Positions 6,509 through 42,436 are shown, numbered from the stretch's first letter. The stretch is 64,000 nt of DNA from an uncultured Hymenobacter sp. (GCF_964242765.1 NZ_CAXTBM010000028.1:5999-69998); one strand, 5' to 3'. Made by a program: numbers and translations. The notes: generated by a model not told the origin, from the letters alone.

Positions 6509-6751
6509 TCAGCGTATCGACTTGCTTTTATCGGCTTTATGCTTGCCCGATTTGGGGTTATAGGTTTTGATTTTCTCGCCGATAGCCGGGTTTTGTTTCT
6601 TGAAGATAGGCTGCCCCCGGTACTTCACGCCATCATGGAAATGCACCTTACGAGTATGGCAGGATACAATTGGGCAGGAGCGGCACGAAGCTACTACAAC
6701 CAGCAAAAGCAGCGGCCAATACCGCCGCGAGAAGAGTCGGAAAAATTTCAT
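6509..6751 (-). CDS. Small hypothetical lipoprotein-like protein (80 aa)
   Basis: MKFFRLFSRRYWPLLLLVVVASC... is a signal peptide with a lipobox-like VASC, followed by a basic tail. Competing plus-strand ORFs look less protein-like. No family recognised. Confidence 0.4.
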   Translation of the reverse strand: MKFFRLFSRRYWPLLLLVVVASCRSCPIVSCHTRKVHFHDGVKYRGQPIFKKQNPAIGEKIKTYNPKSGKHKADKSKSIR

Positions 6752-7033: not shown

Positions 7034-8653
7034 GTGTTTAAGAAGGCCATGGCCATGAAGCAGGATGAAACAGTAGTTGAAGTGGTTAACGGCTGCCTGA
7101 CTCCAGAGCATATCAGTCAATTGAGTGCCATGGTCGGCAAGAGCACTACTTTGGTTGAGCAGGCATTGGCCCAGTTGATTCCGTGGGTGGTTACCATGCT
7201 CACGGAACGGATGACGCGGCCGCATGGGGTAGAGGCCATTTGGGACCTTACGCGGCAGGCGCAGGAGAATCAGGTGCTAACTCAACTCGATAAGCTCGAC
7301 ATTGCCAGCTGGCACGGGCGGGGCGTGATGTTACTGCAAGGCCTGCTCAACGATAGGTACGAATCCACTACGTTCCGCATGTCCATAAAGGCGGGCCTGC
7401 CGTTGGCGTCGTTCAATTTAGTGCTTGAAGTGGCCGTGGCCGCCGTGTTGGGGGGCCTTGGCAAACATGCTGCCGAGCATCACTTGGATGCCGCTGGCTT
7501 AAGCAACTGGTTGCAACAACAGTCGCCTATCCCCAGCGCCCAGTCCCACCCAACGCCAAGTGAGCGGGTAACGGCCACGGTGAATCCAGCTACTCGCCGC
7601 GCTGTTCCGCCGCCCACTTCGCAACCTACCCCCAAGTTTGAAGCCGGCGCCGGTGACTGGGCTAATGTGGGCGGGGGCAGCATCTTTATACCGAAGCAAC
7701 GGACCCTGCTAGGCTCGTATCTGAACAAGCTGCACCACTGGAAATGGGCCTTGTTGCTCTTTCCAGTGCTTGCAATTGGCTACGGTCTTTTCCAATGGCT
7801 TCCTGCTGCCAACGAAACCGCCTTTCCTGAACAAGACACTCCCGTAGCTTATACGGCCAGCAATGCCCCGGCAACTACCTCCGCCATAGCCGAAACGGGT
7901 TCCCCTACGCCCTCCCTGAACGCGCAGACACCTCCCGGTCACTACGATGCCGCCACCGATACCTACATCTACCATACGGGCCAGCCCCTGATTATTACGC
8001 TGGCCGATGGCAGCACGCAGCGCGTAGGTATGAACTCAACTGAGTACCAGCTGTATCGTTTTTTGGCCGATGCCCACCGCCGAGTGGACTCGTTGAACCC
8101 CGCCACGGGCTGGATCAACGTTGACCGGGTGTATTTCAAATCGGGCGCCGCCACGCTTACGCCCGAATCGCAGCAGCAACTAAACAACCTGGCAGCCATT
8201 CTAAGAACCTTCCCCCGCGCTCAAATCCTGTTTGGCGGCTACAGCGACAGCATCGGAGATGGCTTAAAGAATTTACGCCTCAGCGATGCGCGGGCGCAGA
8301 CCGCTATGCGGGCTCTGGCCGAAAAAGGAATCTCGATGGGCCGCTTGCAAGCTATTGGCTACGGCGAAGCCTATGCCGTAGCGTCCAATGCCGCGCCGGT
8401 CGGCCGCGCCCTCAACCGCCGCCTCAGTATTAAAGTGGTTTCCAAATCCGGGCCCCTCCTAGCCGAGCCTCAAACACCCCTCCAACCTAAAACAGCTCTT
8501 GCTGCCGCCTCCGCTGCGCGGGCCGCCAAGTTGGCCCGCTTGAATGCCCCGCAGCAAGTACGGCAGCGGAAGCCACGTCAGCGCACCAAGGTAGGACGTT
8601 GGATCAACAACGTGCGCCAAAAGTTTCGCGCTAAACGCAACCAGCAACAGTAG
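7034..8653 (+). CDS. DUF937-like N-terminal domain, one TM helix, and a C-terminal OmpA-family peptidoglycan-binding domain
   Basis: C-terminus: VYFKSGAATLTPESQQQLNNLAAILRTFPRAQILFGGYSDSIGD...NLRLSDARAQTAMRALAEKGI...GYGE...NRRLSIKVV (OmpA_C-like). The start is ambiguous (GTG 7034, or ATG 7049/7055). Confidence 0.85.
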   Translation: MFKKAMAMKQDETVVEVVNGCLTPEHISQLSAMVGKSTTLVEQALAQLIPWVVTMLTERMTRPHGVEAIWDLTRQAQENQVLTQLDKLDIASWHGRGVMLLQGLLNDRYESTTFRMSIKAGLPLASFNLVLEVAVAAVLGGLGKHAAEHHLDAAGLSNWLQQQSPIPSAQSHPTPSERVTATVNPATRRAVPPPTSQPTPKFEAGAGDWANVGGGSIFIPKQRTLLGSYLNKLHHWKWALLLFPVLAIGYGLFQWLPAANETAFPEQDTPVAYTASNAPATTSAIAETGSPTPSLNAQTPPGHYDAATDTYIYHTGQPLIITLADGSTQRVGMNSTEYQLYRFLADAHRRVDSLNPATGWINVDRVYFKSGAATLTPESQQQLNNLAAILRTFPRAQILFGGYSDSIGDGLKNLRLSDARAQTAMRALAEKGISMGRLQAIGYGEAYAVASNAAPVGRALNRRLSIKVVSKSGPLLAEPQTPLQPKTALAAASAARAAKLARLNAPQQVRQRKPRQRTKVGRWINNVRQKFRAKRNQQQ

Positions 8654-28298: not shown

Positions 28299-30572
28299 TT
28301 AGTTTTCGAGCGGCGAGAAGCGGCGCAGACGCAGCGAGTTGGTTAGCACCGACACCGAGCTCAGCGCCATGGCGCCGGCCGCCAGCATGGGCGAGAGCAG
28401 TACGCCAAAGAAGGGATAAAGAAGCCCAGCGGCCACGGGAATGCCCAGCACGTTGTAGAGGAACGCAAAAAACAGATTCTGCCTGATGGTGCGAATCGTG
28501 TGGCGCGACAAATCAATGGCCGTCACCACCCCCTGCAAGTCCGAGCGCATGAGCGTAATGCCCGCCGCCTCCATGGCTACGTCGGTGCCCCCGCCCATCG
28601 CCAGCCCAATATCGGCCTGGGCTAGGGCTGGCGCATCGTTGATGCCGTCCCCCACCATAGCTACGGTGCGCCCTTCGGCCTGCAATTCCTTGACTTTACC
28701 GGCCTTGTCCTGGGGCAGCACCTCAGCGAAGTAGCGCTTGATGCCCACCTGACCAGCCACCTGGGCGGCGGTTTGGGGGTTGTCGCCGGTCATCATCACC
28801 ACCTCTATGCCCATGCGTTGCAGCCGCTTGATGGCCCCGGCCGACGTTTCGCGCACGGTGTCCGCTACCCCGAGCAGGCCCACGGCCTTGCCGCCTACGG
28901 CTACATATAGCACCGTTTTGGCGCCGGCCAGCAACTCCTCGGCTTGCCGGCTAATGGTAGCTGACAAGGGAATACCCGCCTCCTCGAGCAGGCGGAAGTT
29001 ACCGATAAGCACCGCCTGCCCATCAACTGTTGCCGCGGCGCCCTTTCCCTCCACGGCCCGAAAGCCGCTGGCCGAAACAACCGAGGCCTTCTGGGCCTCG
29101 GCATAGCGTACCACGGCCTCGGCCAATGGGTGCTCGGATTGCCGCTCCACCGCGGCCACCACTTGCAGCAGTTGACCGGCGTCCTGCCCCGCGGCGGGCA
29201 CGAAGTCCGTTACGGCAGGCTCGCCGCGGGTGATGGTGCCGGTTTTGTCGAGCAGCACGGTGTTCACTTGGTAGGCTTTTTCCAGGGCCTCGGCGTTGCG
29301 GATAAGCACGCCGTGCTCGGCGCCCTTGCCGGTGCTAACCATAATGGCCGTGGGCGTGGCCAGCCCCAGCGCGCAGGGGCAGGCAATGATGAGCACAGCC
29401 ACAAAGTTGACCAAGGCCAGCGGCAGCCGCGCTTCTAATGGGGCCAAATCAAACCAGAGCACAAACGTGAGGATGGCAACAACGACCACCGTGGGCACGA
29501 AGATAGCACTGACCTTGTCGGCCAGGCGCTGAATGGGGGCGCGGCTGCCTTGCGCGTCTTCCACCAGCTTCACAATCTGGGCGAGCATGGTGTCGGCGCC
29601 CACTTTGGTGACGCGGAAGCGGAAGGAACCCATTTTGTTGAGCGTAGCCCCGAACACCAAGTCGCCAACCTTTTTCTCTACGGGCAGGCTCTCGCCGGTA
29701 AGCATTGCCTCGTCCACGGCCGAGTAACCTTCTTCGATGAGGCCGTCGGTAGCTACCTTCTCGCCGGGGCGCACCACCACTAGGTCGCCTAGCTGCACCT
29801 GCTCGATGGGCACATCCACTTCCTGGCCACCGGGGCGCACCACGCGGGCGGTTTTAGCCTGCAAGCCCATCAGCGCCTTGATGGCAGCCGAGGTCTGGGT
29901 TTTGGCGCGCAGCTCCAGCACTTTGCCCAGCAGAATCAGGGCAATGATAGTCGCCGTCGTGTCGTAGTAGACTTCCGGCATCAGGCCGTGGCGCATGAAA
30001 AAGTTAGGCGCCACCGTAGCAGCCAGGCTATAAAGAAAGGCGGCCCCGGTGCCCACGGCAATGAGCGTGTCCATGTTGGCGGCGCGGTGCCGAAAGCCGT
30101 TCCAGGCCGAGGTATAAAACGCCCGGCCGCTGTAGAGCACTACCGGGAGGGCAAGCAAAAGCAGGCCGTAGTTGAGCCACTGCAGGTTTACGCGCTGCAT
30201 CAGGGCCGGCCAGAGCATAAGCATACTCAAGGGCATGATGAGCAGGGCCAGCCCCGCGGCCACCCAAAACCGGCGCTTAAGCTTCTGGTAAGCCCGGGCT
30301 TTCTGCTGGTCGATTGCAGTTTGCCGGTCGGCGGCGCTGGTATCGGGCACCCGTTCGGTAACGCCGTAGCCGGCCTTCACCACGGCTTCCTTTAGCGTGG
30401 CGGGGCTGGCCTGGGTGGTTAGATAGTCGATGGTTGCTTTCTCGGTGGCAAAGTTGACCACCGCTCGCTGCACACCGGGCGTGCGGGTCAGGGATTTCTC
30501 CACGAAGGCCGCGCACGAGGCGCAGGTCATTCCTTCAATGTCGAGGGTTTCGGTTTTCGTGACAGGTTCCAT
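28299..30572 (-). CDS. copA: Copper-translocating P1B-type ATPase
   Basis: N-terminal HMA domain ([15 protein letters not shown]), the TM6 CPC motif ([15 protein letters not shown]), DKTGTIT, and [10 protein letters not shown]. Confidence 0.95.
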
Positions 30573-30861: not shown

Positions 30862-31782
30862 ATGCCCATCCCCGTTGGCACACCCGCCCCTCTTGCTTCT
30901 AATTCCGAACGCGCCGAGCGGGGACAACAGTCTACGCTGCTGGGCATTGGGGCGAACATTGCCCTGGTTCTGGGTAAGGGAGCGGCCGGCGTACTCGGCC
31001 ATTCGTATGCCCTGATTGCCGACGCCATTGAATCGGGCACCGACATTATCAGCTCCTTTATTGTGTGGCTAGGCTTGCGTACCGCCGCCCGCGAGCCGGA
31101 CGAAAACCATCCTTACGGCCACGGCAAAGCCGAACCCCTGGCCGCGCTGGTCGTTGCGGGCGCTTTGCTGGCTGCCGCGGCCTACATTGCCTACGAGAGT
31201 ATAATGCGAATTCAGACCCCGCACCAATTGCCGGCTTCGTTCACGTTGGTGGTGCTGGCGGTGGTTATTGTTATCAAGGAAACGCTCTACCGCCGGGTGT
31301 TGCGCGTGGGCAAGGAGGTGGACAGCAGCGCGGTGAGAGCCGACGCCTGGCACCACCGGGCCGACGCTATTACGTCCTGCACGGCCTTTGTCGGCATTAG
31401 CATTGCCTTGTGGGGAGGGCCCGGTTACGAAAGTGCCGATGACTGGGCCGCTTTGGTAGCCTGCGGCTTTATCGTTTACAACGCGTACCACATCTTCCGG
31501 CCCGCTTTCGGCGAAATCATGGACGAGGCTCCGGACGGAACTTGGACCGCCGACATTCGGGCGCTGGCCCAGAGTGTGCCCGGCGTGGTAGCCACCGAAA
31601 AGTGCTTTGTACGCAAGATGGGCTTTGAGTTCTTCGCGGACCTGCACATCATTGTCGATGGCAGCATTAGCGTGCGCGAAGGCCACGTTATTGCGCACGC
31701 CGTGAAGGCCACTATCATGAAGGCCAAACCGGCTGTGTACAACGTGCTGGTTCACGTCGAGCCGCAAGACGAATACGCCTAA
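30862..31782 (+). CDS. Cation diffusion facilitator (CDF) family metal efflux transporter
   Basis: ...NIALVLGKGAAGVLGHSYALIADAIESGTDIISSFIVWLGLR...PDENHPYGHGKAEPLAALV...AWHHRADAITS are CDF TM2/TM5 metal-site motifs, followed by a C-terminal cytoplasmic domain. Confidence 0.9.
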   Translation: MPIPVGTPAPLASNSERAERGQQSTLLGIGANIALVLGKGAAGVLGHSYALIADAIESGTDIISSFIVWLGLRTAAREPDENHPYGHGKAEPLAALVVAGALLAAAAYIAYESIMRIQTPHQLPASFTLVVLAVVIVIKETLYRRVLRVGKEVDSSAVRADAWHHRADAITSCTAFVGISIALWGGPGYESADDWAALVACGFIVYNAYHIFRPAFGEIMDEAPDGTWTADIRALAQSVPGVVATEKCFVRKMGFEFFADLHIIVDGSISVREGHVIAHAVKATIMKAKPAVYNVLVHVEPQDEYA

Positions 31783-32031: not shown

Positions 32032-32514
32032 ATGTTCCGTAGCCTGTTCCCTTTCCGACGCCTGCTGGCGACGAGCTTCCTGCTCGTCTTCGTCAACGTG
32101 TTTGTGGGGCAATGCTGGTGCGCAACCATCAATCCGGCACTGGCTGCTCCCGCGCCGGTAGCCCAGGCTGCCGCCTTGAAAAAGCCGACGCATGCCGGCT
32201 GCCATGGCATGGCTACGGTCGAGCAGGAGCCCAGGAAGGCCCAACACGCGCACGGCACGCCCGACTCCAAGTCGTCGGGCAAGCACGACTGCTGCAAAGA
32301 CAACTCGGCCGCCATTCTTAAGTCGCTCGCGACGCCCGGCGAAAAGCACCTGCTAACGTCCGCGCCCGCCCTGCTGCCGGCCAGCAACGACTTCTTTTTC
32401 CGGCCGGCTGCCGGCCAGTGGGACCGCACCCACGCCGTGGTTCTGGTGCTCCGCGAGCACCTGCCGCCCAAAATTCCCGACATCCGGATTTTCATTCAGT
32501 CCCTGACGGTCTGA
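32032..32514 (+). CDS. Hypothetical exported Cys/His-containing protein (160 aa); no family recognised
   Basis: N-terminal hydrophobic segment LLATSFLLVFVNVFVG, an A/P-rich linker, then ...KKPTHAGCHGMATV...HAHGTPDSKSSGKHDCCKDNS.... It is followed by its own terminator-like hairpin. Antisense ORFs were rejected. Confidence 0.6.
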   Translation: MFRSLFPFRRLLATSFLLVFVNVFVGQCWCATINPALAAPAPVAQAAALKKPTHAGCHGMATVEQEPRKAQHAHGTPDSKSSGKHDCCKDNSAAILKSLATPGEKHLLTSAPALLPASNDFFFRPAAGQWDRTHAVVLVLREHLPPKIPDIRIFIQSLTV

Positions 32515-32842: not shown

Positions 32843-33790
32843 ATGTACCGCTTACCACTTTCCCTGTTGGCCCTAGCCGGCCTGCTCACTGTTACCAGTT
32901 GCTCGTCTGATTCCAATTCGAGCAGCGCCACCAACACCGTCAGCACGCCCACCAACGGCCCGGCCGAAGGCACGGCTGACCACAGCGGCGGCCACACCTA
33001 CGCCTGCCCCATGCACCCCGAAGTTACCAGCACCAAGGAAGGGGAAAAGTGCCCCAAGTGCGGCATGACCCTGGAGCATAACGACAAGGTGGCCAACGGC
33101 AAAACCTACGAAATGAAGTTCGTGCCGACTCCCACGGAACTCACCGCCGGCCAGCCCGCTACGCTGGCTTTCACGCCCCGCCAAACCGGCAACGAGGCGG
33201 CCCCCGTGCCCCTGGCCGTGGTGCACGAGAAAAAAATTCACCTTATCGTCGTTAGCAAGGACCTCTCGCAGTTCTACCACGAGCACCCCGAGTACACGGC
33301 CGACGGCGACTACAAGGTGCAGTACACCTTCCCCAAGGGCGGCGACTACGTGCTGTTCCAGGACTACACACCCGCGGGCTCCAGCCACCAGTTGGGCCGC
33401 CAGCCGCTCACGGTGAAGGGCCCGGCTTACGCGCCCGTCAAGTTCAAGAACGACGACATGCAGTGGAATAAGAACGGCTACCAGGCCACGCTCTCCTTCG
33501 ATAAGCCGCTGACCGTGGGTCAGTTGCTGGGCATGAAAATCAACATCACCAAAGGCGGCCAACCGGTAACCGACCTCGACAACTATCTCGGCGCCCTGGG
33601 CCACGTGGTCGTCATCAGCGAAGACACCGAGCAATACCTGCACGTGCACCCCAACGACCAAACCGACAAAGGCCCTGCCATTGGCTTCAACACCAACTTC
33701 GAAAAGCCCGGCCTCTACCGCGTTTTTCTGCAATTCAACCACGGTGGCCAGATTCATACCGGTGATTTCACCATCAACGTGAAAGCCTAG
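32843..33790 (+). CDS. Lipoprotein with an N-terminal heavy-metal-binding domain (HMBD) and two tandem Ig-like repeats
   Basis: Start MYRLPLSLLALAGLLTVTSC (lipobox; ATG 32843). YACPMHPEVTSTKEGEKCPKCGMTL is the HMBD motif. Two paralogous modules each carry H.(I/V)VV(S/I).D..Q(F/Y).H.HP. Confidence 0.85.
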   Translation: MYRLPLSLLALAGLLTVTSCSSDSNSSSATNTVSTPTNGPAEGTADHSGGHTYACPMHPEVTSTKEGEKCPKCGMTLEHNDKVANGKTYEMKFVPTPTELTAGQPATLAFTPRQTGNEAAPVPLAVVHEKKIHLIVVSKDLSQFYHEHPEYTADGDYKVQYTFPKGGDYVLFQDYTPAGSSHQLGRQPLTVKGPAYAPVKFKNDDMQWNKNGYQATLSFDKPLTVGQLLGMKINITKGGQPVTDLDNYLGALGHVVVISEDTEQYLHVHPNDQTDKGPAIGFNTNFEKPGLYRVFLQFNHGGQIHTGDFTINVKA

Positions 33791-34149: not shown

Positions 34150-35385
34150 ATGAAGTACCTAGTGATAAATGCCCTTCTTGGATGGCTGCTGGCTCTGCTG
34201 GCCGGTGCTGGTCCGGCTTGGGCGCAAACGGCCGTCGTTGGCCTCGACAGCGCCGAAGCCCAGAGTTTGCGCCGCCACCCGCGGCTGCGGCAGTCCGAGC
34301 GGGAAATTGCCGAGCAGCGGGCCCTCAAGCGCAGCAGCTTTGCACCAGCCAACCCGGATTTTCTGTTTTCGGCCCCCACGGGCGAGAGGTGGGCGCCGGG
34401 CGTAGTGCAAACCATCGACCTGCCGAACGTGTACCGGCGGCAACGCCAAGCAGCCGAGGCCGGCATCACCCTGGCTGAGCGCAACCGGGCGGTCAGCCGG
34501 GCCTCGGTGCTGCGCGACGCCCGCCTGGCTTACCTTTCCCTGCAATTTGCCGAGGCCCAGGTGCGGCAGCTCACTTACCAAGACAGTCTGTTTCGGGCGT
34601 TGCGCCTAGCCACCGAGCGGCTGTTTGCGGCCGGGGAGGTGACGTCTCTGCAACGCATCAGCACCGACGCCGAAGCCCGGCAAGTTACCGTGCAGCTTCA
34701 GCAGGCCACCGAAGACCAGCGCGCGGCGCAGCGGCGCCTGGGTTTGCTGCTGGGCCGGCCCACCGAAGCACTGGCCACCAGCACCGACTTGCGCCGCAGC
34801 GGCCCGGAATTGGCCCAGGCCGGCACGGCGCTGCTGGGCGGTTTGCCGGCCGAAGACAGCAGCGCCCTGGTGCGCAGCCCCACCCTGGCAGCAGCCACCC
34901 AGAACGTGGCGCTGAGCCAATCGGGTATTAGCCTGGTCCGGGCCCGGCGCACGCCGGCCCTGACGGTGGGGTACCAGAACCAGGCCTTTGAAAACTCAAC
35001 TGTCCGGTACCGCTTCCAGTTCGGCGTGTCGGTGCCCATCTGGTTCTGGACCTACCGCGCCCAGTTGCAGGCGGCCACGGCCCGCAGCCAGGCGGCCGGC
35101 TACCAGCTGCAAGTCCAGCGCCTGGAGCTAAGCACTCTCTACCAGCAGGCGCTGGCCGACACGCGCAAGTTTTCGGCTTCGCTGGGCTATTATGAGCAGA
35201 CTGGCGTGCCGCAGTCGCGGACCATCATCAGCCAGTCGCAGCGCCTGTTCCAAGCCGGCGAAATCAGCTACCTGGTCTTGCTTCAAAGCCTGAACCAAGC
35301 CTTTACCATTCAGAATACCTACCTGACCACTATCCGCGACTACCGTCAGGCCCTGGTCGAACTTAACTACCTGCGCGGTGAATAA
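34150..35385 (+). CDS. TolC-family outer-membrane factor of the HME-RND efflux system (CzcC/CusC-like)
   Basis: Start MKYLVINALLGWLLALLAGAGPAWAQ (signal peptide; ATG 34150), followed by two OEP-type coiled-coil repeats. Confidence 0.9.
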   Translation: MKYLVINALLGWLLALLAGAGPAWAQTAVVGLDSAEAQSLRRHPRLRQSEREIAEQRALKRSSFAPANPDFLFSAPTGERWAPGVVQTIDLPNVYRRQRQAAEAGITLAERNRAVSRASVLRDARLAYLSLQFAEAQVRQLTYQDSLFRALRLATERLFAAGEVTSLQRISTDAEARQVTVQLQQATEDQRAAQRRLGLLLGRPTEALATSTDLRRSGPELAQAGTALLGGLPAEDSSALVRSPTLAAATQNVALSQSGISLVRARRTPALTVGYQNQAFENSTVRYRFQFGVSVPIWFWTYRAQLQAATARSQAAGYQLQVQRLELSTLYQQALADTRKFSASLGYYEQTGVPQSRTIISQSQRLFQAGEISYLVLLQSLNQAFTIQNTYLTTIRDYRQALVELNYLRGE

Positions 35386-35386
35386 G

Positions 35387-35998
35387 ATGAAACAACTCCT
35401 GATTTTGCTGCTGAGCCTGCTCCTGAGCGGAGCGGCCCACGCCCACGGGGGCGAAGACCACGGTGATGGGGCCAAGGCTTCCACCCCAGCCGGCGCGACC
35501 TCCTTCTCTGTGGCCGCCCTATCAGAACAGTTCGAGGTGCTGCTGCGCTACGAGCCGCTGGCAGGCGGCGAGCCCGCCGACCTGCGGCTATTCCTCTCGG
35601 ACTACGCTACCAACGCCCCCATCAAAGGCGCCAAGCTGACGTTGACCAACCCCGAAGATGCGCAGCTGAAGTGGGCGGTGACGGAACAGGAGCCCGGCAT
35701 TTACTTGGTAGAAGGAGAATTTCCGGCTAATAAGCCCTACAGCTTCGCCCTCAACATCGTGGCCGGCGACCGGGCCGATTTGATGCTGCTCGAAGGTATT
35801 AAGGTGGGCGAGAAACTGCCCGGGGCGGCAACACCCACTGCCGGAGCCCCCTCACTTTTCTTTTCCTGGAAAATCATTCTGGCCCTGGCCGGAGCCTTTG
35901 TGCTCGGCATTGCCCTGACGGTCTTGCTCATGCGTCGGCGGCGCGTTGCCGCCCTGGTCTCCACTTCAACTTCTGCCGTCTATGAAAACCACGCATAA
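35387..35998 (+). CDS. Uncharacterised exported, C-terminally membrane-anchored protein encoded inside the HME-RND operon (203 aa)
   Basis: The ATG is 1 nt after the OMF stop, and the 3' end overlaps the adaptor start by 17 nt. Signal peptide MKQLLILLLSLLLSGAAHA, then HGGEDHGDGAKAST, a beta-rich middle, a C-terminal TM helix WKIILALAGAFVLGIALTVLLM, and RRRR. Confidence 0.75.
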   Translation: MKQLLILLLSLLLSGAAHAHGGEDHGDGAKASTPAGATSFSVAALSEQFEVLLRYEPLAGGEPADLRLFLSDYATNAPIKGAKLTLTNPEDAQLKWAVTEQEPGIYLVEGEFPANKPYSFALNIVAGDRADLMLLEGIKVGEKLPGAATPTAGAPSLFFSWKIILALAGAFVLGIALTVLLMRRRRVAALVSTSTSAVYENHA

Positions 35999-37127
35999 AT
36001 TCCTTGCGGCCACGGCCGCCGCTGGCCTGATACTGACGGTGCTGCTCCCGCCCCCCGTTGCCGTGCTCGGCCACGACGGCGAAGACCACGGCGGCGAAGC
36101 CAAAGCCAGCACCGGCGTGGCCCTGACCGACGAAGTATTGCTGCCCAAGGAAAGCCAGTTTCTCTTCGAGGTGCGCACCAACCTGGCCTCTTACTCCACG
36201 ACTTATAGCCGGGCTACGCTCTACGGCACCGTATCGGCCGCCGCCGGGGGCGAAGGGCGCCTCGTGGTGCCGCAAACCGGCCGCATCGTGCGCCTCGCGG
36301 CGCAGGTGGGCCAGCGGGTACGCGCCGGGCAGACGCTGGCCGTCATCGAGCAAACCCTGGATGCCACCCAACAAATTGGGCTGAGCACCGAGCGGGCCAA
36401 CGCGCAGGCCGAGCTGCGGGCTGCCCAGCAGGACTACGCCCGCCTGCAAAGCATTGCCGACATCGCCGCCCGCAAGGATGTGGTGGCCGCCGAGCTGCGT
36501 TTGCGCCAGGCCCGGCAAAATGCCAGCATCTACAACGGGCAGGCCCAGCAGCGCCGCGTGAGCGTCACCTCGCCGGTGAGCGGCACCGTGGATGTGTTCA
36601 ATCTGGCCGTGGGTCAGCAGGTCAACCAGGGCGACGAGCTTTTTCGCGTCATTAACCCCGGCAAGCTGCGGGTGGAAGCCCAGGTGTTTGCCCAGGATCT
36701 GGCCAAGGTCACACCCGGCGCGCAGTTTCGGGTGGAAGGCCTGCAAGGACAGCCCGGCGCCCCGGCCCGGCTGGTGGTGTTTAGCAACGTGGTCAACCCC
36801 GTCAACCAGGCCCGCCAGCTGATTCTGGAGCTGGATGCTAGCCAGGGCAGCGCCTACCGCGCCGGCCAGGCGGTGAACGTGCAGGTGATAAGCCAAAGCG
36901 GCAATGGCCAGAAGCAACTGGTAGTGCCCACTTCGGCCGTAACCGACCTCAACGGCAAGCCGGTGGTGTTTGTGCACACCGAGCCGGAGCGCTTCAAGAT
37001 TCGCTACGTGCAGCCCGGCGCCGCCAGTGGCGAGCAAACCGTGCTGGTGCAGGGACAGGTCAATGAAAACGACCGGGTCGTAACCGCTGGCACCTACCAG
37101 CTTAAGTCTATTTACCTCAATCAATAG
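35982..37127 (+). CDS. Efflux RND periplasmic adaptor subunit (CusB/CzcB-like membrane fusion protein)
   Basis: Start MKTTHKFLAATAAAGLILTVLL (ATG 35982), then HDGEDHGGEAKAST, then lipoyl/barrel-sandwich motifs (...GRIVRLAAQVGQRVRAGQTLAVIE..., ...VSGTVDVFNLAVGQQVNQGDELFRV...). Confidence 0.9.
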   Translation: MKTTHKFLAATAAAGLILTVLLPPPVAVLGHDGEDHGGEAKASTGVALTDEVLLPKESQFLFEVRTNLASYSTTYSRATLYGTVSAAAGGEGRLVVPQTGRIVRLAAQVGQRVRAGQTLAVIEQTLDATQQIGLSTERANAQAELRAAQQDYARLQSIADIAARKDVVAAELRLRQARQNASIYNGQAQQRRVSVTSPVSGTVDVFNLAVGQQVNQGDELFRVINPGKLRVEAQVFAQDLAKVTPGAQFRVEGLQGQPGAPARLVVFSNVVNPVNQARQLILELDASQGSAYRAGQAVNVQVISQSGNGQKQLVVPTSAVTDLNGKPVVFVHTEPERFKIRYVQPGAASGEQTVLVQGQVNENDRVVTAGTYQLKSIYLNQ

Positions 37128-37129
37128 GG

Positions 37130-40100
37130 ATGCTCGATAAGATAATTCGCTTTGCCCTGCAAAACCGCCTGCTGATGCTGGCCTTTGCCATGGGGCTGCT
37201 GATTGCCGGCTCGTACACGGCCCGCGAGCTACCCGTGGACGTGCTACCCGACCTGGACCGTCCCCGCGTAACCGTGTTCCTGGAAGCCCCGGGCATGGCC
37301 CCGGAAGAAGTGGAAGCCTTGGTGACGTTGCCCGTGGAAACGGCCCTGAACGGCGCTACGGGCGTTTCGGCCGTGCGTTCTAATTCGGCCATTGGCCTCG
37401 GGATGGTGTTCGTGGAGTTCGACTATGGCACCGACATCTTCACGGCCCGTCAGATTGTGAGCGAAAAGCTGCAAACCACGGGCGAACAACTACCAACCGG
37501 CATCACGCCGGTGCTGGGGCCCATTTCGTCGGTGATGGGCCAGATTATGCTGGTGGGGCTGTCCGGCGGAAGCCAGACCAGTGCCGCGGACTTGCGCACG
37601 CTGGCCAACTACACCGTGCGGCAGCGGTTGCTTTCCATTCCCGGCGTGGCCCAGGTCATCCCCATCGGCGGCGACAACTTGCAGTACCAGGTGCTGCTGG
37701 ACATGCCCCGGCTGAACGCTACCGGCCTGACGGTGAGCCAGGTGGAAGAGGCGCTGCGCCAATCCAACCTCAACACCACCGGCAACTTCTTCGACCGAAA
37801 TGGCTCAGAGGTACTGATTCGCAACCTGGGCCGCCTGCGCTCGGTCCAGGACATCGAAAACCTTGTCGTGGGCTACCGCGAGCAGTCCCCTATCCGCGTG
37901 GCCGACATCGCCAAGGTGGAGTTCGGGGCCCGCTTCAAGCGCGGCGACGGCAGCGTGAACGGCAAGCCCGCCGTTGTTCTGAGCATCGAAAAGCAGCCCG
38001 GCACCGCCACCGTCGGCCTCACCGAAGCCGTGGAAAAAGCACTGGTAGAATTGAAGCCGTCGCTGCCCAAAGACGTGCAGGTGAACACGCGCTTGTTCAA
38101 GCAATCCGAGTTCATCGAGTCGAGTATCACCAACGTGGAGGAAGCCTTGCGCGACGGGGCCATTCTGGTGGTTATCGTGCTGTTTGCCTTTCTGCTCAAC
38201 GTGCGCACCACCTTTATTTCGTTGGTGGCCATTCCGTTGTCGCTGCTGGTTACGGCGTTGGTGTTCCGCTTTGCTGGCATCAGCATCAACACCATGACGC
38301 TGGGCGGGCTGGCCATTGCCATTGGCGAGCTGGTTGATGATGCCATTGTGGACGTGGAAAACGTGTACCGGCGCCTACGCGAAAACCGGCAGTTGCCTAA
38401 CCCGCAGCCGGTGCTCAAAGTCATCTACGCGGCCTCGTCGGAGGTGCGCAACTCCATCGTGTACGCTACCATCATCGTGGTGCTGGTGTTTTTGCCGCTG
38501 TTTGCGCTCGAAGGTATGGAGGGCCGAATTTTCGCCCCGCTCGGCATTGCCTACATCACCAGCATCGTGGCCTCGCTGTTTGTGTCGCTGACCGTCACGC
38601 CGGTGCTCTGCTACTACCTGCTGCCCCGCATGAAGCAGAGCAACCACCCCGAACCCGACGGCCTGCTGGTACGCTGGTTGAAAAAGAAGGACACCCGCTT
38701 GCTGGGCTGGGGCCTGCGGCAGCCGAAGCTAGTGCTTGTTTCGACGGCCCTGCTCTTTGTGATGGCCGCGGCCATGGTGCCGTTTTTCGGCACCGAGTTT
38801 CTGCCGCCTTTCAATGAAGGGTCGCTAACTGTCAACTTCTCGGCCCCGGCCGGCACCTCGCTCACCGAATCCAACCGCCTGGGCACGCTGGGCGAACAGC
38901 AGATGCTCGAGATTCCGGAAGTGGCTTACACCGCCCGTCGAACCGGGCGCGCCGAGTTGGATGAGCACGCTGAATCGGTCAACAATTCGGAAATCGAAGT
39001 GGCCTTCAAGACGGCAGCGGAACTGCAACGAGAGGGAAGAAGCATGCGCAGCCGCGACGAAATCCTGGCCGATATGCGCCAGAAACTTAACCTAATTACG
39101 GGCGTGAACGTGAACATCGGCCAGCCCATTTCCCATCGCCTCGACCACCTGCTGAGCGGCGTGCGGGCCCAAGTGGCCATCAAAGTGTTTGGCCCTGACC
39201 TGCTGGAGCTGCGCCGCTATGCCGGCGAAGTGCGCGCGGCCGCCAGCACCGTGCCGGGCGTGGTGGACTTGCAGGTCGAAAAGCAGGTGCAAATTCCCCA
39301 GCTACTCATCCGCCCCCGCGACGAGGCCTTGCGCGCCTACGGCATGGAGCGCGGCGAAGTGGTGCGCGATTTGCAAACCCTATTCCAGGGCACGGTGGTG
39401 TCGCAGATGCTCGACGGGCAGAAACGGTTTGACTTAGTGGTGAAGCTACCCGAAGTGCAACGCAACGACATTGCCGCCATCAGCCAAACCCGCATTGAAA
39501 CGCCGACCGGCGCCATGATTCCGGTAAGTCAGGTGGCCGACATCGTTTATGAGCCGGGCCCCAACACCGTCAACCACGAAAACACCCAGCGCCGCATTAC
39601 CATCTCGCTGAACGTAGCCGAGCGGGATCTGGGCTCCACAGTGAAGGAGATTCAGCAGAAGGTGAGTCAGCAAGTGAAGCTGCCGCCGGGCTATTACCTC
39701 ACCTACGGCGGGCAGTTCGAGCGCCAGCAGTCGGCTTCGCAGAAGATTCTGTGGCTGAGCTTGTTTTCGCTGGCCGGCATCTTCCTGGTCTTGTTCTCGC
39801 ACTTCAAGTCCAGCTACATGGTCGGGCAGATTATGCTCAACATCCCGCTGGCCCTCATCGGCTCGGTGGTGGCTGTGCTGGTTACGGGCGGCACCTTCAG
39901 CATTGCCTCACTGGTAGGCTTCATCACGCTCACCGGTATTGCCTCGCGCAACGGCATCATGATGATTTCCCACTACATCCACCTCGTGGAGCATGAGGGC
40001 GAGAAGTTTGGGAAGGAAATGATACTGCGCGGCTCGCTGGAACGCCTAGTGCCGGTACTGATGACGGCCCTGGTGGCTGCGTTGGCGCTGGTGCCGCTTA

Positions 40101-40351
40101 CGCTGGCCAAGGATGCGCCGGGCAAAGAAATTCTCTACCCGGTAGCCACCGTCATCCTCGGCGGCCTACTCTCGTCCACCTTCCTCGACATCATCGTGAC
40201 GCCGGTGGTGTTTTGGTTGGTCGGCGAGAAAGCCCTGGCGCAATACTTCGCTGCCCACCGGGAAACGGGCCTCAACGACCACTCACGGGAGCTGGACGCG
40301 CAGCCCCTCACGCCACCCTCGGACCTGAACCCGGTGCTGCCCAGGCGCTAA
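37130..40351 (+). CDS. Heavy-metal efflux RND permease, CusA/CzcA family
   Basis: 1073 aa. N-terminus MLDKIIRFALQNRLLMLAFA. The TM4 region GGLAIAIGELVDDAIVDVENVYRRL resembles the CusA-type A-x5-D-x6-E pattern more than the CzcA D-x5-D-x6-E pattern. Confidence 0.95.
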   Translation: MLDKIIRFALQNRLLMLAFAMGLLIAGSYTARELPVDVLPDLDRPRVTVFLEAPGMAPEEVEALVTLPVETALNGATGVSAVRSNSAIGLGMVFVEFDYGTDIFTARQIVSEKLQTTGEQLPTGITPVLGPISSVMGQIMLVGLSGGSQTSAADLRTLANYTVRQRLLSIPGVAQVIPIGGDNLQYQVLLDMPRLNATGLTVSQVEEALRQSNLNTTGNFFDRNGSEVLIRNLGRLRSVQDIENLVVGYREQSPIRVADIAKVEFGARFKRGDGSVNGKPAVVLSIEKQPGTATVGLTEAVEKALVELKPSLPKDVQVNTRLFKQSEFIESSITNVEEALRDGAILVVIVLFAFLLNVRTTFISLVAIPLSLLVTALVFRFAGISINTMTLGGLAIAIGELVDDAIVDVENVYRRLRENRQLPNPQPVLKVIYAASSEVRNSIVYATIIVVLVFLPLFALEGMEGRIFAPLGIAYITSIVASLFVSLTVTPVLCYYLLPRMKQSNHPEPDGLLVRWLKKKDTRLLGWGLRQPKLVLVSTALLFVMAAAMVPFFGTEFLPPFNEGSLTVNFSAPAGTSLTESNRLGTLGEQQMLEIPEVAYTARRTGRAELDEHAESVNNSEIEVAFKTAAELQREGRSMRSRDEILADMRQKLNLITGVNVNIGQPISHRLDHLLSGVRAQVAIKVFGPDLLELRRYAGEVRAAASTVPGVVDLQVEKQVQIPQLLIRPRDEALRAYGMERGEVVRDLQTLFQGTVVSQMLDGQKRFDLVVKLPEVQRNDIAAISQTRIETPTGAMIPVSQVADIVYEPGPNTVNHENTQRRITISLNVAERDLGSTVKEIQQKVSQQVKLPPGYYLTYGGQFERQQSASQKILWLSLFSLAGIFLVLFSHFKSSYMVGQIMLNIPLALIGSVVAVLVTGGTFSIASLVGFITLTGIASRNGIMMISHYIHLVEHEGEKFGKEMILRGSLERLVPVLMTALVAALALVPLTLAKDAPGKEILYPVATVILGGLLSSTFLDIIVTPVVFWLVGEKALAQYFAAHRETGLNDHSRELDAQPLTPPSDLNPVLPRR

Positions 40352-40422: not shown

Positions 40423-40450
40423 AGCTGCGTCGGCAGCGGTTTTTTATTTT
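40423..40450 (+). terminator. Weak terminator-like hairpin plus T-tract after the RND pump gene
   Basis: GCTGC-gtcg-GCAGC followed by ggTTTTTTATTTT. The stem is only 5 bp. Confidence 0.4.
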
Positions 40451-40464
40451 CTGAAAAAAGTCGT

Positions 40465-40511
40465 CTATGTTGTAAACATACGACATACTATGTCGTATGT
40501 TTACAACATAG
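40465..40511. repeat. Perfect 22-bp inverted repeat with a 3-nt spacer (candidate ArsR-family operator or structural hairpin)
   Basis: CTATGTTGTAAACATACGACAT (40465-40486), act, ATGTCGTATGTTTACAACATAG (40490-40511). I verified it base by base. Function is inferred only. Confidence 0.9.
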
Positions 40512-40746
40512 CAAATTACTCCCTTCCCCTCGATGCTTGCCAACGCTTATCTTATTGTTCGCTCATGGCTGCGCCTTCTGCTTGAACACGGACTGCGTTT
40601 TCAGGCCGAAGTTCGTAGCGTCCTACCCGGCAGCGACATCGACGAAGCCGAGCAACGCGCCCTCCGCAAGGCAGAAACCATGCTCACGCCATTGCTTGCC
40701 AGTAGCACTCTAGCTTCCACTCTTTATGGGCTCCCGCCTACGTTTG

Positions 40747-41097
40747 ATGACCTACGCTAAAACTGCCTCTTTCACCGAAGAGCAACAGCAGCTTGCTCGT
40801 ATTGCCAAGGCCTTGGCGCACCCGGCACGGGTCGCTATCATTCAACTACTGGCCTCCAAACAAACCTGCATCTCCGGCGACATCGCTGCCGAGTTGCCGC
40901 TCTCGCGCACTACCGTTTCGCAGCACTTGCAGGAACTCAAGGCCCTGGACTTGATTCGGGGCGAGATTGAGGGACTCACCGTCTGCTACTGCCTCAATAC
41001 CGAACTGCTGCACCAAGTGCACCAGCAGTTCACTGCCTTCTTTCTTGAGGCCACCACCAGCGCGGCCTGCGGCCCGGATGCCGCCTGCGGTTGCTAG
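40747..41097 (+). CDS. ArsR/SmtB-family metalloregulatory repressor with a Cys-rich C-terminal tail
   Basis: ...[55 protein letters not shown] is the ArsR wHTH. The C-terminus is ...[13 protein letters not shown] chose the start MTYAKT (40747); the ORF opens at 40726. Confidence 0.88.
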
Positions 41098-41133
41098 ATC
41101 ACCTTTCCTTTGCAGCCTAAACAGCCCTATCCC

Positions 41134-41592
41134 ATGAAAATCTCTGAAATGAAGCAGTCCCTGGCGGGACTCGAAGCCGTGAATTTTCGCTTGCCCAACG
41201 GGGACTACCTCCCTTCCCATTTCCACGTGACGGAAGTCGGCTTGGCAACCAAACACTTTATCGACTGCGGTGGGGTCGAGCGCCGGGAAACCGCAGCCAA
41301 CTTTCAGCTCTGGGAGGCTGGCGACTACGACCACCGGCTCGCCCCGCAGAAATTTCTGCACATCCTTAAGTTGTCAGAGAGAATTTTAGGCGCTGAGGAC
41401 CTAGACATCGAGGTGGAATACCAGCAGGAAACCATCGGCAAGTTCGGCCTCACTTTCGACGGCACCGACTTTGTGCTGACCTCAAAGCAGACGGCTTGCC
41501 TGGCGCAGGATGCGTGCGGCGTTCCGAATAAAGAGTTTGCATTGCCCCAGCTGCAAATTGCTGGTTGCACGCCGGGCGGCGGGTGTTGCTAA
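41134..41592 (+). CDS. DUF6428-family protein (a family commonly found in ars operons)
   Basis: MKISEMKQSLAGLEAVNFRLPNGDYLPSHFHVTEVGLATKHFIDCGG...FQLWEAGDYDHRL. The C-terminal tail is ...AGCTPGGGCC*. The family call is from memory. Confidence 0.75.
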   Translation: MKISEMKQSLAGLEAVNFRLPNGDYLPSHFHVTEVGLATKHFIDCGGVERRETAANFQLWEAGDYDHRLAPQKFLHILKLSERILGAEDLDIEVEYQQETIGKFGLTFDGTDFVLTSKQTACLAQDACGVPNKEFALPQLQIAGCTPGGGCC

Positions 41593-41662
41593 GGCCTTTG
41601 AGCGGCGCTGCCTAGTAGGTGGCGCCGTTTTGCTTACCCTCCCTTCGTACTTTCTCTTTCTG

Positions 41663-42436
41663 ATGACAATTGCTTTTTTCTCGGACGTGCACGGCAACCT
41701 GCCGGCCTTGGAGGCGGTCCTAACTGACCTCGACCAACGCCGCCCCGACATGGTTTTTTGCCTGGGCGACCTGGTAGGCTACGCCCCCTGGCCCAACGAA
41801 GTGGTCAACGAGGTGCGGCGGCGGGGCATTCCCACGCTGGCCGGCAACTACGACCAGGGCATTGGCCTGGCCAGCGAAAACTGCGGCTGCGCCTACAAGA
41901 CGGACGTAGAAAAAAACCTGGGCGCCCAAAGCATTGCCTACACCAACCAGGTTGTGAAGGCGGATGAGCGCCGCTATTTGCGCTATCTGCCTAAGCACAT
42001 ACGCCTGGACTTTCAGGAGGAGCCCTGTACTCTTAGCCTGCTGATGGTGCACGGCTCGCCGCGCAAAATCAATGAATACTTGTTCGAGGATCGGCCCGAA
42101 GCAAGTTTTCTGCGGGTATTGGCGGATACCAACGCCGATATTCTGCTCTTTGGCCATACGCACAAGCCCTACCACCGCACCTTTGCCTACGAGCACGAAG
42201 GCGAAACCCGTTACCGGCACGCGCTCAACATCGGCTCGGTGGGCAAGCCCAAGGACGGCGACCCGCGGGCGGCCTACCAGTTGCTGCACCTCGACGAGCA
42301 CACCACGCTGACCGACCCGCAGCGTGTGCGCTCCGAGTTGATTCGGGTGGCTTACGACGTGGAGAAAGCCGCGCAGGCAGTGGAAGCTTCACCACTGCCC
42401 AACGAATACGCCGATATGCTGCGCAACGCCTACTAG
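41663..42436 (+). CDS. Metallophosphoesterase family protein (YfcE/MPP superfamily)
   Basis: MTIAFFSDVHGNLPALEAVL...VFCLGDLVGYAPWPNEV...AGNYD...LMVHGSP...LLFGHTHKP are the canonical D-x-H / GD / GNH(D) / H / GH motifs. Confidence 0.88.
   Translation: MTIAFFSDVHGNLPALEAVLTDLDQRRPDMVFCLGDLVGYAPWPNEVVNEVRRRGIPTLAGNYDQGIGLASENCGCAYKTDVEKNLGAQSIAYTNQVVKADERRYLRYLPKHIRLDFQEEPCTLSLLMVHGSPRKINEYLFEDRPEASFLRVLADTNADILLFGHTHKPYHRTFAYEHEGETRYRHALNIGSVGKPKDGDPRAAYQLLHLDEHTTLTDPQRVRSELIRVAYDVEKAAQAVEASPLPNEYADMLRNAY

Follow-up and report, generated by a model that had tools for sequence, protein, structure and literature searches.

A split-off adaptor module with a histidine-rich arm is a candidate metal capture component of a NieA-like heavy metal efflux operon in Hymenobacter

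In a stretch of 64,000 nucleotides from an uncultured Hymenobacter sp. (GCF_964242765.1 NZ_CAXTBM010000028.1:5999-69998; the whole stretch is hereafter called the window), the genes for the outer membrane factor (OMF), the periplasmic adaptor (membrane fusion protein, MFP) and the pump of a heavy metal efflux system of the resistance-nodulation-division superfamily (HME-RND) are accompanied by a fourth gene, here called X, that lies between the OMF and adaptor genes (Table 1). The question raised by this locus is what the product of X does, and what it means that the His/Asp/Glu-rich arm at its N-terminus has a near copy in the adaptor. Comparison with relatives from several phyla shows that X is the N-terminal module of a longer adaptor, present here as a separate gene, and we lean towards the view that it acts as a membrane-tethered, His-based module for metal capture and hand-off.

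Re-reading of the open reading frames (ORFs) bore out the gene order, the gene junctions, the signal peptide, the C-terminal anchor and the twin His/Asp motifs that the original prediction had described. The OMF stop and the X start are separated by a single nucleotide (TAA g ATG), the last 17 nt of X are also the first 17 nt of the adaptor gene, read in another frame, and the pump starts 2 nt past the adaptor stop. The X protein is 100% identical to a record from 'uncultured Hymenobacter sp.', and a word-indexed search found 279 close homologues, nearly all from Hymenobacter and about 203 aa long, with 70-100% identity among the 120 listed.

A HMMER search that was exhaustive over 1.84 billion representatives (at most 50% identical) extended the family to 624 representative clusters at E ≤ 1e-3 and 220 at E ≤ 1e-10. 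Among the best 150 representatives, 60 (about 40%) are fusions of X to an adaptor, typically 545-617 aa in length and at least 480 aa in 54 of them, and 77 are standalone proteins of 160-270 aa; standalone forms are present in several phyla. In every fusion that was read, the order is signal peptide, AHGGEDHG arm, immunoglobulin-like (Ig) domain, transmembrane (TM) helix, basic loop, short hydrophobic segment, second AHGGEDHG arm, KETQFLF and adaptor body. Where the source gives the fusions a name (Thermodesulfobacteriota, Deltaproteobacteria metagenome-assembled genomes, MAGs), it is 'efflux RND transporter periplasmic adaptor subunit', and a fused copy on a Haliscomenobacter plasmid is annotated in the same way. 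Because the fusions carry the X module and the adaptor in this constant order, X is the detached N-terminal module of a widespread long adaptor, the Hymenobacter gene being split inside the cytoplasmic loop, and the natural fusions show that X and adaptor act together at 1:1. The fourth component proposed by the original prediction is thus a real, conserved and uncharacterised HME-RND partner, but instead of an independent component of a new kind it is a split-off long-adaptor module belonging to a known fold group.

The junction between X and adaptor is not the same in all Hymenobacter loci. In 19 of 79 loci the two genes are in one frame with a single stop codon between them and the adaptor ATG a few codons further on (L008, at 6583-6600, L009-L011, L014, L015, L017, L018, L020, L028, L030, L032, L034, L036, L038, L039, L052, L055 and L080). 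The varying junctions look like differing scars of gene fission. Programmed read-through or frameshifting was considered and rejected, because the junction type differs by locus (a 17-nt out-of-frame overlap in the window, an in-frame stop in the 19 loci) and there is no shared recoding signal.

The genomic context of X was compared in the best 80 Hymenobacter loci of a genome scan and, for distant relatives, in contexts obtained by exact-protein look-ups. Some 80 Hymenobacter loci have an intact X with 57-87% identity, the order OMF-X-adaptor-pump is kept wherever the contig reaches far enough, and the OMF gene is directly 5' of X in nearly all loci extending that far. Outside Hymenobacter, in all seven contexts for which DNA was available, X immediately precedes an adaptor body and an RND pump. 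The split form occurs in a Logan assembly contig (L082, 38% identity), in L086, where a multicopper oxidase and an HMA protein are nearby, in Undibacterium (L088), together with a CusS-type two-component system, and in Aromatoleum (L089), and the fused form in L083 and in a Deltaproteobacteria MAG (L084/85). X homologues adjoin adaptor and RND genes in the Betaproteobacteria Undibacterium, Aromatoleum and Accumulibacter, and besides Hymenobacter the synteny reaches Betaproteobacteria, Deltaproteobacteria-type MAGs and other Bacteroidota. The neighbourhood comparison, proposed as a check when X was first noticed, therefore shows an association with RND operons that is conserved across phyla. 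PLSDB also contains 18 Hymenobacter plasmids with the X module, the majority typed as non-mobilizable, and some genomes have several copies. Hymenobacter sp. 102 has five copies of the operon, distributed over the chromosome and the 127-kb plasmid unnamedC (L003, L009, L010, L017, L020).

An AlphaFold2 model of X, based on a 46-sequence alignment, has a mean predicted local distance difference test (pLDDT) value of 87.5. The beta-rich body that had been predicted is seen as an eight-strand sandwich at residues 40-140, with pLDDT of about 98, followed by a long C-terminal helix (residues 161-200), while the arm region (residues 11-30) has pLDDT 59-68. The C-terminus after the RRRR cluster is a 17-residue tail. 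Tethering of X to the membrane, also part of the original prediction, is upheld by the C-terminal TM anchor and by the presence of a C-terminal TM helix and basic cluster in 70 of the 77 standalone relatives.

Although X has no significant match in Pfam, NCBIfam or the sequences of the PDB, and X of the window does not itself match the YtkA family (PF13115), structure and relatives place it. The top Foldseek match in the PDB is CrdA of Helicobacter pylori (9ll2_A, E 3.5e-4, template modelling score 0.77 normalised to CrdA, 12% identity), with filamin-type Ig domains following, and CrdA appears at E 0.78 when the X profile is compared with PDB sequences. PF13115 is matched by 24 of the 46 X relatives at E ≤ 1 (best 1e-7), and its gathering threshold of 25.9 bits is passed by the relatives P0185 (32.3 bits) and P0199 (30.7 bits). 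In a profile-profile comparison with hhalign, X aligned to the first YtkA-like domain of a lipoprotein encoded upstream of the operon with 76% probability (E 2.3e-5), and UniRef names some X homologues 'CopC domain-containing'. The YtkA-like assignment of X is thus a putative one, made by transitive homology only; as a fold, X is a divergent member of the Ig-like group used in copper trafficking, being YtkA-like and resembling CrdA and CopC. It lacks the in-fold His clusters borne by the domains of the neighbouring lipoprotein (HEKKIH...HEHP), and its sequence has no Met-rich loop. The most conserved positions of the body are E50, N76, A82, G104, Y106 and D131, nearly invariant among 46 diverse relatives (N76 and G104 invariant), and S71, D72, T75 and P78 are conserved in a closer relative set. 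The statement that X does not resemble CusF also stands: BLASTP against E. coli CusF gave E 0.72, the Pfam scan found no CusF-type family and the model is Ig-like, so that X as a CusF homologue was rejected.

The arms of X and adaptor, HGGEDHGDGAKAST and HDGEDHGGEAKAST, are identical at 11 of 14 amino acids and share the exact 14-mer GGCGAAGACCACGG, as had been claimed, and they agree at 31 of 42 nucleotides; the 14-mer occurs exactly twice in the window compared with 0.01 occurrences expected from shuffles. Recent duplication or gene conversion was examined as its origin and rejected because, in 63 distinct Hymenobacter loci, the core motifs are as alike in nucleotide sequence within a locus (19.41 of 21) as between loci (19.35 of 21), the observed figure being attained in 857 of 5000 shuffles; at third codon positions the two identities are likewise equal. 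A conserved peptide together with codon bias explains the shared 14-mer.

What is conserved is the peptide itself. Nearly all of the 79 Hymenobacter loci have the HGGEDH core in both X and adaptor, usually as AHGGEDHG, with HDGEDH occasionally in the arm of X, and the eight residues that follow the core vary. Beyond the genus, 63 of the 150 representatives have an exact HGGEDH within their first 70 residues, H20 and H25 of X are nearly invariant among the 46 diverse relatives, and in 47 fusions the second arm always has its first His and nearly always an Ala ahead of it. The two arms also co-vary, with a within-protein identity of 4.16 of 6 positions in 56 fusions as against 3.31 ± 0.12 after shuffling, a value reached by none of 10000 shuffles; pairs such as HEGHDH/HEGHDH, HSGHDH/HSGHDH, HGDDDH/HGDDGH and HEGEVH/HEGESH illustrate this. 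The match between the arms noticed in the window is therefore upheld as a conserved and co-varying feature of distant relatives. In the model of a fused homologue (P0131; 47 sequences, pLDDT 88, predicted template modelling score 0.68) the only long disordered stretches are the two arms, at residues 18-29 and 205-224 (pLDDT <50), and each arm is therefore taken to be a flexible tether, some 20 residues in length, that precedes the opening strand of its domain. In CusB, the N-terminal Met site occupies a topologically comparable position.

The adaptor has ZneB as its nearest solved structure (3lnn, E 4.5e-10, the alignment starting at residue 53), and the adaptor body of the P0131 model matches ZneB and CusB at E of about 1e-19. 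The pump passes the HME-RND model TIGR00914 (Pfam ACR_tran, E 6.5e-272) and is roughly equidistant from CusA (471 bits) and ZneA (450 bits). When it was aligned to E. coli CusA (31% identity, with the conserved anchors NEG, GRAE and GQPIS flanking the positions), the Met triad M573/M623/M672 corresponded to N/N/H, and the Met relay residues M271, M755, M486, M403 and M410 were absent. The TM4 motif, originally read as CusA-like, is not so: it has the NieA/HME5-like signature AIG-X3-DDA-X3-VEN, compared with AVG-X3-DAA-X3-IEN in CusA. With triad, relay and TM4 signature all differing, a CusA-type Cu(I)/Ag(I) pump (HME4) was rejected.

Eight X-associated pumps from Bacteroidota, a Deltaproteobacteria MAG, Betaproteobacteria and other contigs were aligned. 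All eight have AIGELVDDA(I/V)V(D/G)VEN in TM4, the D-to-G change of the Aromatoleum pump (L089) falling outside the signature positions, and all have DEHAE(G/S/N)-x-(H/N) at the M623 position, where proteobacterial members read HAEGVH. At the M672 position all have GQPISHR(L/I)DHLLSG, with HRLDH in seven and HRIDH in Aromatoleum. NieA of Cupriavidus neocaledonicus is distinguished by the signatures HAEGVH, HRLDH and AIG-X3-DDA-X3-VEN (Table S7, PMC7060636); the pump of the window has the second and third exactly, and HAESVN, which lacks the second His, in place of the first. By these signatures the pump belongs to the NieA-like HME class, a class that rests on one genome paper and is without functional definition.

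A further feature of the arms concerns what precedes them. In most Hymenobacter orthologues the N-terminal segment of the adaptor ends in VQA|H (PPPGLVQA|H in standalone adaptors), and in the fused relatives Ala is at -1 of the X-type N-terminal site in 37 of 56. Ahead of the second arm of the 60 fusions lies a hydrophobic run, of median length 12 residues (quartiles 11-13), and then a Pro-containing polar stretch of about 9; the internal site has Ala at -1 in 55 of 60, A/V/S/T/I/L at -3 in 54 of 60 and a variable, often bulky residue at -2. For comparison, the hydrophobic run of the preceding TM helix is 20 residues (quartiles 18-22) and that of the true N-terminal signal peptide 10, and the P0131 model has a 27-residue helix followed by a 14-residue helix. 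The second hydrophobic segment appears to follow the n-h-c/AxA pattern of a cleavable signal peptide, not that of a membrane span, and both X and adaptor would mature with His as residue 1. CopC, YcnI and nickel superoxide dismutase have amino-terminal Cu(II)/Ni(II) sites with such a residue-1 His arrangement.

It is possible, although we regard it as doubtful, that the second hydrophobic segment of fused long adaptors is an internal signal peptide cut by signal peptidase I (SPase I), that the Hymenobacter split is the genetic equivalent of this cut, and that the products form a His/carboxylate relay for a new, divalent-exporting HME-RND class. If so, one precursor would give two polypeptides, each starting with His, and the amino group and imidazole of His1, Asp/Glu and His6 could form an amino-terminal Cu(II)/Ni(II) site. 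The periplasmic relay would then run from a tethered YtkA-like chaperone to the adaptor arm and to a His-lined pump entry, mechanistically parallel to the Met-based Cus relay and chemically distinct from it, with a divalent ion exported by the new class.

Taken by itself, the proposal that X is a membrane-tethered, His-based metal capture and hand-off module for adaptor and pump is the reading that we consider somewhat more probable than its alternatives taken together. After export, cleavage by SPase I would give X, and probably also the adaptor, a His at residue 1, and the C-terminal helix would keep X at the inner membrane, one per adaptor. The flexible His/Asp/Glu arm of X could then capture a periplasmic metal ion, which ligand exchange would move to the chemically identical arm at the adaptor N-terminus, and this arm would offer it to the NieA-type pump at a His-lined periplasmic entry site (HAESVN, HRLDH). 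Such a relay would parallel the path by which metal goes from CusF through the CusB N-terminus to the Met triad of CusA, but N/O ligands would take the role of Met. Signal cleavage, metal binding, the identity of the metal and the direction of transfer are what we infer in this scheme.

Several points weigh against it. The Ig body of X has no conserved His, Met or Cys, its only conserved candidates being E50, D72, N76 and D131, and any metal site therefore depends on the short disordered arm. The cleavage by signal peptidase is predicted from sequence rules only. The co-variation test controls only partly for kinship of the 56 proteins, and since the representatives are not phylogenetically independent, the effect size is more reliable than the shuffle count. 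The role of the N-terminus of E. coli CusB, as relay or as switch, is itself debated, and the Cus analogy therefore settles neither the direction nor the purpose of the transfer. Finally, the sole published guess for this pump class is nickel (PMC7060636), whereas the neighbours here point to copper.

One alternative is that X, or the N-terminal module of the long adaptors, has chiefly an assembly or regulatory role, its TM helix and Ig domain docking on the pump or organising the adaptor hexamer and the His arms serving as a metal-sensing switch that activates the pump. The best-conserved positions of X would fit this, as they lie in the Ig body, are not typical metal ligands and suggest a protein-protein interface, and so would the retention of the anchor and basic cluster in most standalone forms; fusion to the adaptor at 1:1 equally fits a structural partner, and the PDB holds accessory proteins on tripartite pumps (YbjP with AcrABZ-TolC; AcrZ). 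Nevertheless, the arms are the most sequence-specific feature that X and adaptor share, and their co-variation is hard to reconcile with a purely structural role; the nearest fold relatives are copper chaperones, and a switch would still need to bind metal and so overlaps with capture and hand-off. We consider this alternative unlikely.

It is still less probable that X is an independent periplasmic metal buffer or redox handler in the manner of CopC, PcoC or CrdA, co-regulated with the pump and without physical hand-off to it. This would agree with the structural match to CrdA/CopC-type proteins and with the copper-resistance surroundings (CopA, HMBD proteins, multicopper oxidase), but covalent fusion to the adaptor in some 40% of the best 150 representatives and the presence of the adaptor gene next to X in every context examined speak for a closer association, and one short arm offers very little buffering capacity. 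That X is an evolutionary relic, a decaying fission product in Hymenobacter whose twin motifs simply go back to an ancient internal duplication of a 'signal peptide + arm' cassette and serve no matched function at present, might be suggested by the weak alignment of its N-terminal ~70 residues with the second-arm region of some fusions (stretch E 4e-4 to 9e-3 in a small database) and by the scar-like single stop in the 19 loci, but is very improbable, because the intact state of X in the Hymenobacter loci, the near-invariance of the HGGEDH core between varying flanks, the standalone forms in several phyla, the confidently modelled Ig domain (pLDDT 98) and the co-variation of the motifs together indicate purifying selection.

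Table 1 Features of the HME-RND operon and its surroundings in the window (positions counted from the first nucleotide of the window)
Feature	Position	Strand	Remarks
CPC-type Cu P1B ATPase, HMA motif GMTCASC	28299-30572	-	
CDF transporter	30862-31782	+	Cation_efflux, E 9e-49
Upstream lipoprotein, HMBD and YtkA-like domains	32843-33790	+	HMBD E 6.8e-13, YtkA E 1.9e-6
OMF, 411 aa	34150-35385	+	Pfam OEP PF02321, E 1.8e-30, two repeats
X, 203 aa: signal peptide, His arm, putative YtkA-like Ig domain, C-terminal TM anchor	35387-35998	+	
X signal peptide MKQLLILLLSLLLSGAAHA, residues 1-19	35387-35443	+	predicted SPase I site AHA|H, read from sequence
X His/Asp/Glu arm HGGEDHGDGAKAST	35444-35485	+	directly after signal peptide
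X Ig-like beta-sandwich, residues 40-140	35504-35806	+	AlphaFold2, Foldseek, PF13115 in relatives
X C-terminal TM anchor WKIILALAGAFVLGIALTVLLM, residues 161-182, then RRRR	35867-35944	+	RRRR faces cytoplasm
RND periplasmic adaptor (MFP), 381 aa	35982-37127	+	TIGR01730, 112.8 bits, cut-off 94.9
Adaptor N-terminal signal-peptide-like segment MKTTHKFLAATAAAGLILTVLLPPPVAVLG	35982-36071	+	n-h-c architecture
Adaptor His/Asp/Glu arm HDGEDHGGEAKAST	36072-36113	+	~25 residues before the KESQFLF strand opening the aligned adaptor body
HME-RND pump, NieA-like class, 1073 aa	37130-40351	+	TIGR00914, 812.5 bits, cut-off 701.45
Pump TM4 signature AIAIGELVDDAIVDVEN, AIG-X3-DDA-X3-VEN	38312-38362	+	kept in eight X-associated pumps
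Pump periplasmic HAESVNN	38966-38986	+	at CusA M623 position
Pump periplasmic HRLDH	39134-39148	+	at CusA M672 position
Terminator-like hairpin and T-run	40424-40447	+	73 nt 3' of pump stop; consensus scan only

As to the metal, copper probably ranks first, most likely as Cu(II), with Ni(II) or Zn(II) possible. The His/Asp/Glu ligands and the His-lined entry suit Cu(II), Ni(II) and Zn(II) better than Cu(I), and the original prediction's doubt about Cu(I) proves justified, the Met triad of CusA being absent from the pump. Neighbours that point to copper are the CPC-type P-type ATPase with its HMA motif, the HMBD lipoproteins, the multicopper oxidase of L086 and the CusS-type sensor of L088. The HMBD/YtkA lipoprotein of the window (lipobox LTVTSC) has two Ig-like repeats with His clusters of their own, HEKKIH...HEHP and HVVVIS...HVHP, and its gene is found at a distance of 1-2 kb upstream in almost every Hymenobacter locus; L082 and L083 have it upstream too. 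The ATPase, the cation diffusion facilitator (CDF) transporter and the operon together form a metal-resistance island. Among the HME5 relatives in Synechocystis are both the nickel pump NrsA and the copper pump CopA (PMC7060636).

The operon resembles E. coli CusCFBA in being an HME-RND operon with an extra small periplasmic gene. Its pump passes the CusA/CzcA model, its adaptor body folds as CusB and ZneB, and like CusB the adaptor has a flexible N-terminal region with candidate metal ligands, the sites with like ligands being ordered into the pump. CusF is a small beta-barrel with a Met/His/Trp site, whereas X is membrane-anchored, often fused to the adaptor and modelled as an Ig-like sandwich; in contrast to Cus, the arm ligands are His/Asp/Glu instead of Met/Trp and the X gene is placed between the OMF and adaptor genes. 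In its architecture of signal peptide, beta-sandwich and C-terminal TM helix, X is similar to YcnI (DUF1775) of Bacillus subtilis, a membrane-tethered Cu(II)-binding protein (PMC8424229) of copper uptake. YcnI coordinates its metal by an N-terminal His that is freed by signal-peptide cleavage and lies within the folded domain, while the His of X is on a flexible arm of about 20 residues and X would serve efflux; the Pfam scan found no sequence or family relationship between X and YcnI.

A gene at the place of X, between the OMF and adaptor genes of a pump with these signatures, has been described before. In the nieIC-cep-nieBA operon of C. neocaledonicus STM 6070 the C-B-A order is interrupted by a gene for a 'conserved exported protein' (cep), and a new HME class, perhaps for nickel, was proposed (PMC7060636). 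Both operons have the pump signatures and an extra exported-protein gene between the OMF and adaptor genes, and we infer from the gene position, the pump class and the betaproteobacterial X homologues that cep is homologous to X. Unlike in that paper, the fold, the motif analysis and the fused forms are given here, and the Bacteroidota pumps have HAESVN as opposed to HAEGVH.

Two groups of copper proteins have a similar fold. With the YtkA-like family (PF13115; CtaK/YtkA and the C-terminal domain of YcnJ), X has in common a membrane-associated, extracytoplasmic Ig-like domain. In B. subtilis, both YtkA/CtaK and YcnJ's YtkA domain have been linked to the supply of copper to cytochrome oxidase (PMC13344008). 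CtaK is a membrane-anchored lipoprotein (PMC13344008), whereas X is anchored by its C-terminal helix, has its candidate ligands in an N-terminal arm outside the domain and accompanies an efflux pump, not oxidase assembly. H. pylori CrdA (PDB 9ll2/9ll4), the best structural match, is a CopC-like copper/silver-binding protein of the crdAB-czcBA efflux system with a Met-rich loop and no His. Like X it is a small periplasmic accessory encoded with an HME-RND pump, but it is soluble and not fused to an adaptor, and X differs from it in its His arm and TM anchor. Literature searches on Hymenobacter copper efflux and on YtkA/CopC domains with adaptors found nothing, and those on histidine-rich adaptor extensions found nothing specific.

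Further features of the locus lie outside the four genes. The operon likely ends at the hairpin 3' of the pump gene. An intergenic inverted repeat of 47 nt with a 20-bp stem (CTATGTTGTAAACATACGAC...GTCGTATGTTTACAACATAG) follows at 40465-40511, also 3' of the pump, and is placed on the minus strand by the terminator scan. Further downstream, at 40726-42436 (+), there are genes for an ArsR-family regulator (HTH_5, E 1.7e-9), a DUF6428 protein (E 9e-59) and a metallophosphoesterase, which may be a separate metal- or metalloid-responsive unit. Upstream, at 32032-32514 (+), a 160-aa ORF without a Pfam match has a hydrophobic N-terminus and the Cys/His-rich stretches GQCWC, HAGCHG and HDCCKD, and a gene of similar size and position was called in L001 (2143-2604). 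Many Hymenobacter copies of the operon have an extra gene between adaptor and pump, encoding a secreted DUF4440/SnoaL-like protein (PF14534, E 3e-7), as in L008 at 7775-8287, with equivalent adaptor-pump gaps of ~600-1300 bp in many of L002-L081; the window operon, with its 2-nt spacing at this place, is without it.

Among RND metal pumps, periplasmic metal delivery has to our knowledge been worked out only for the Met-based Cus system of E. coli, and far less is understood about the route by which ions reach divalent-metal RND pumps. The HME-RND class to which X is attached has been noticed once in print and never studied. For this question the X family, with its 624 clusters in several phyla and its frequent plasmid-borne occurrence in Hymenobacter, is a naturally occurring model of wide distribution: one short His/Asp/Glu arm is common to the presumed donor and the presumed acceptor, the pump entrance is lined with His and not Met, and fusion in some species and separation in others fixes both the pairing and the 1:1 stoichiometry. 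The finding also supplies a candidate function for the 'conserved exported protein' of nie-type operons and points to a likely annotation gap, as neither Pfam nor NCBIfam has a model that detects X of the window, and it makes internal signal-peptide processing of a bacterial adaptor conceivable.

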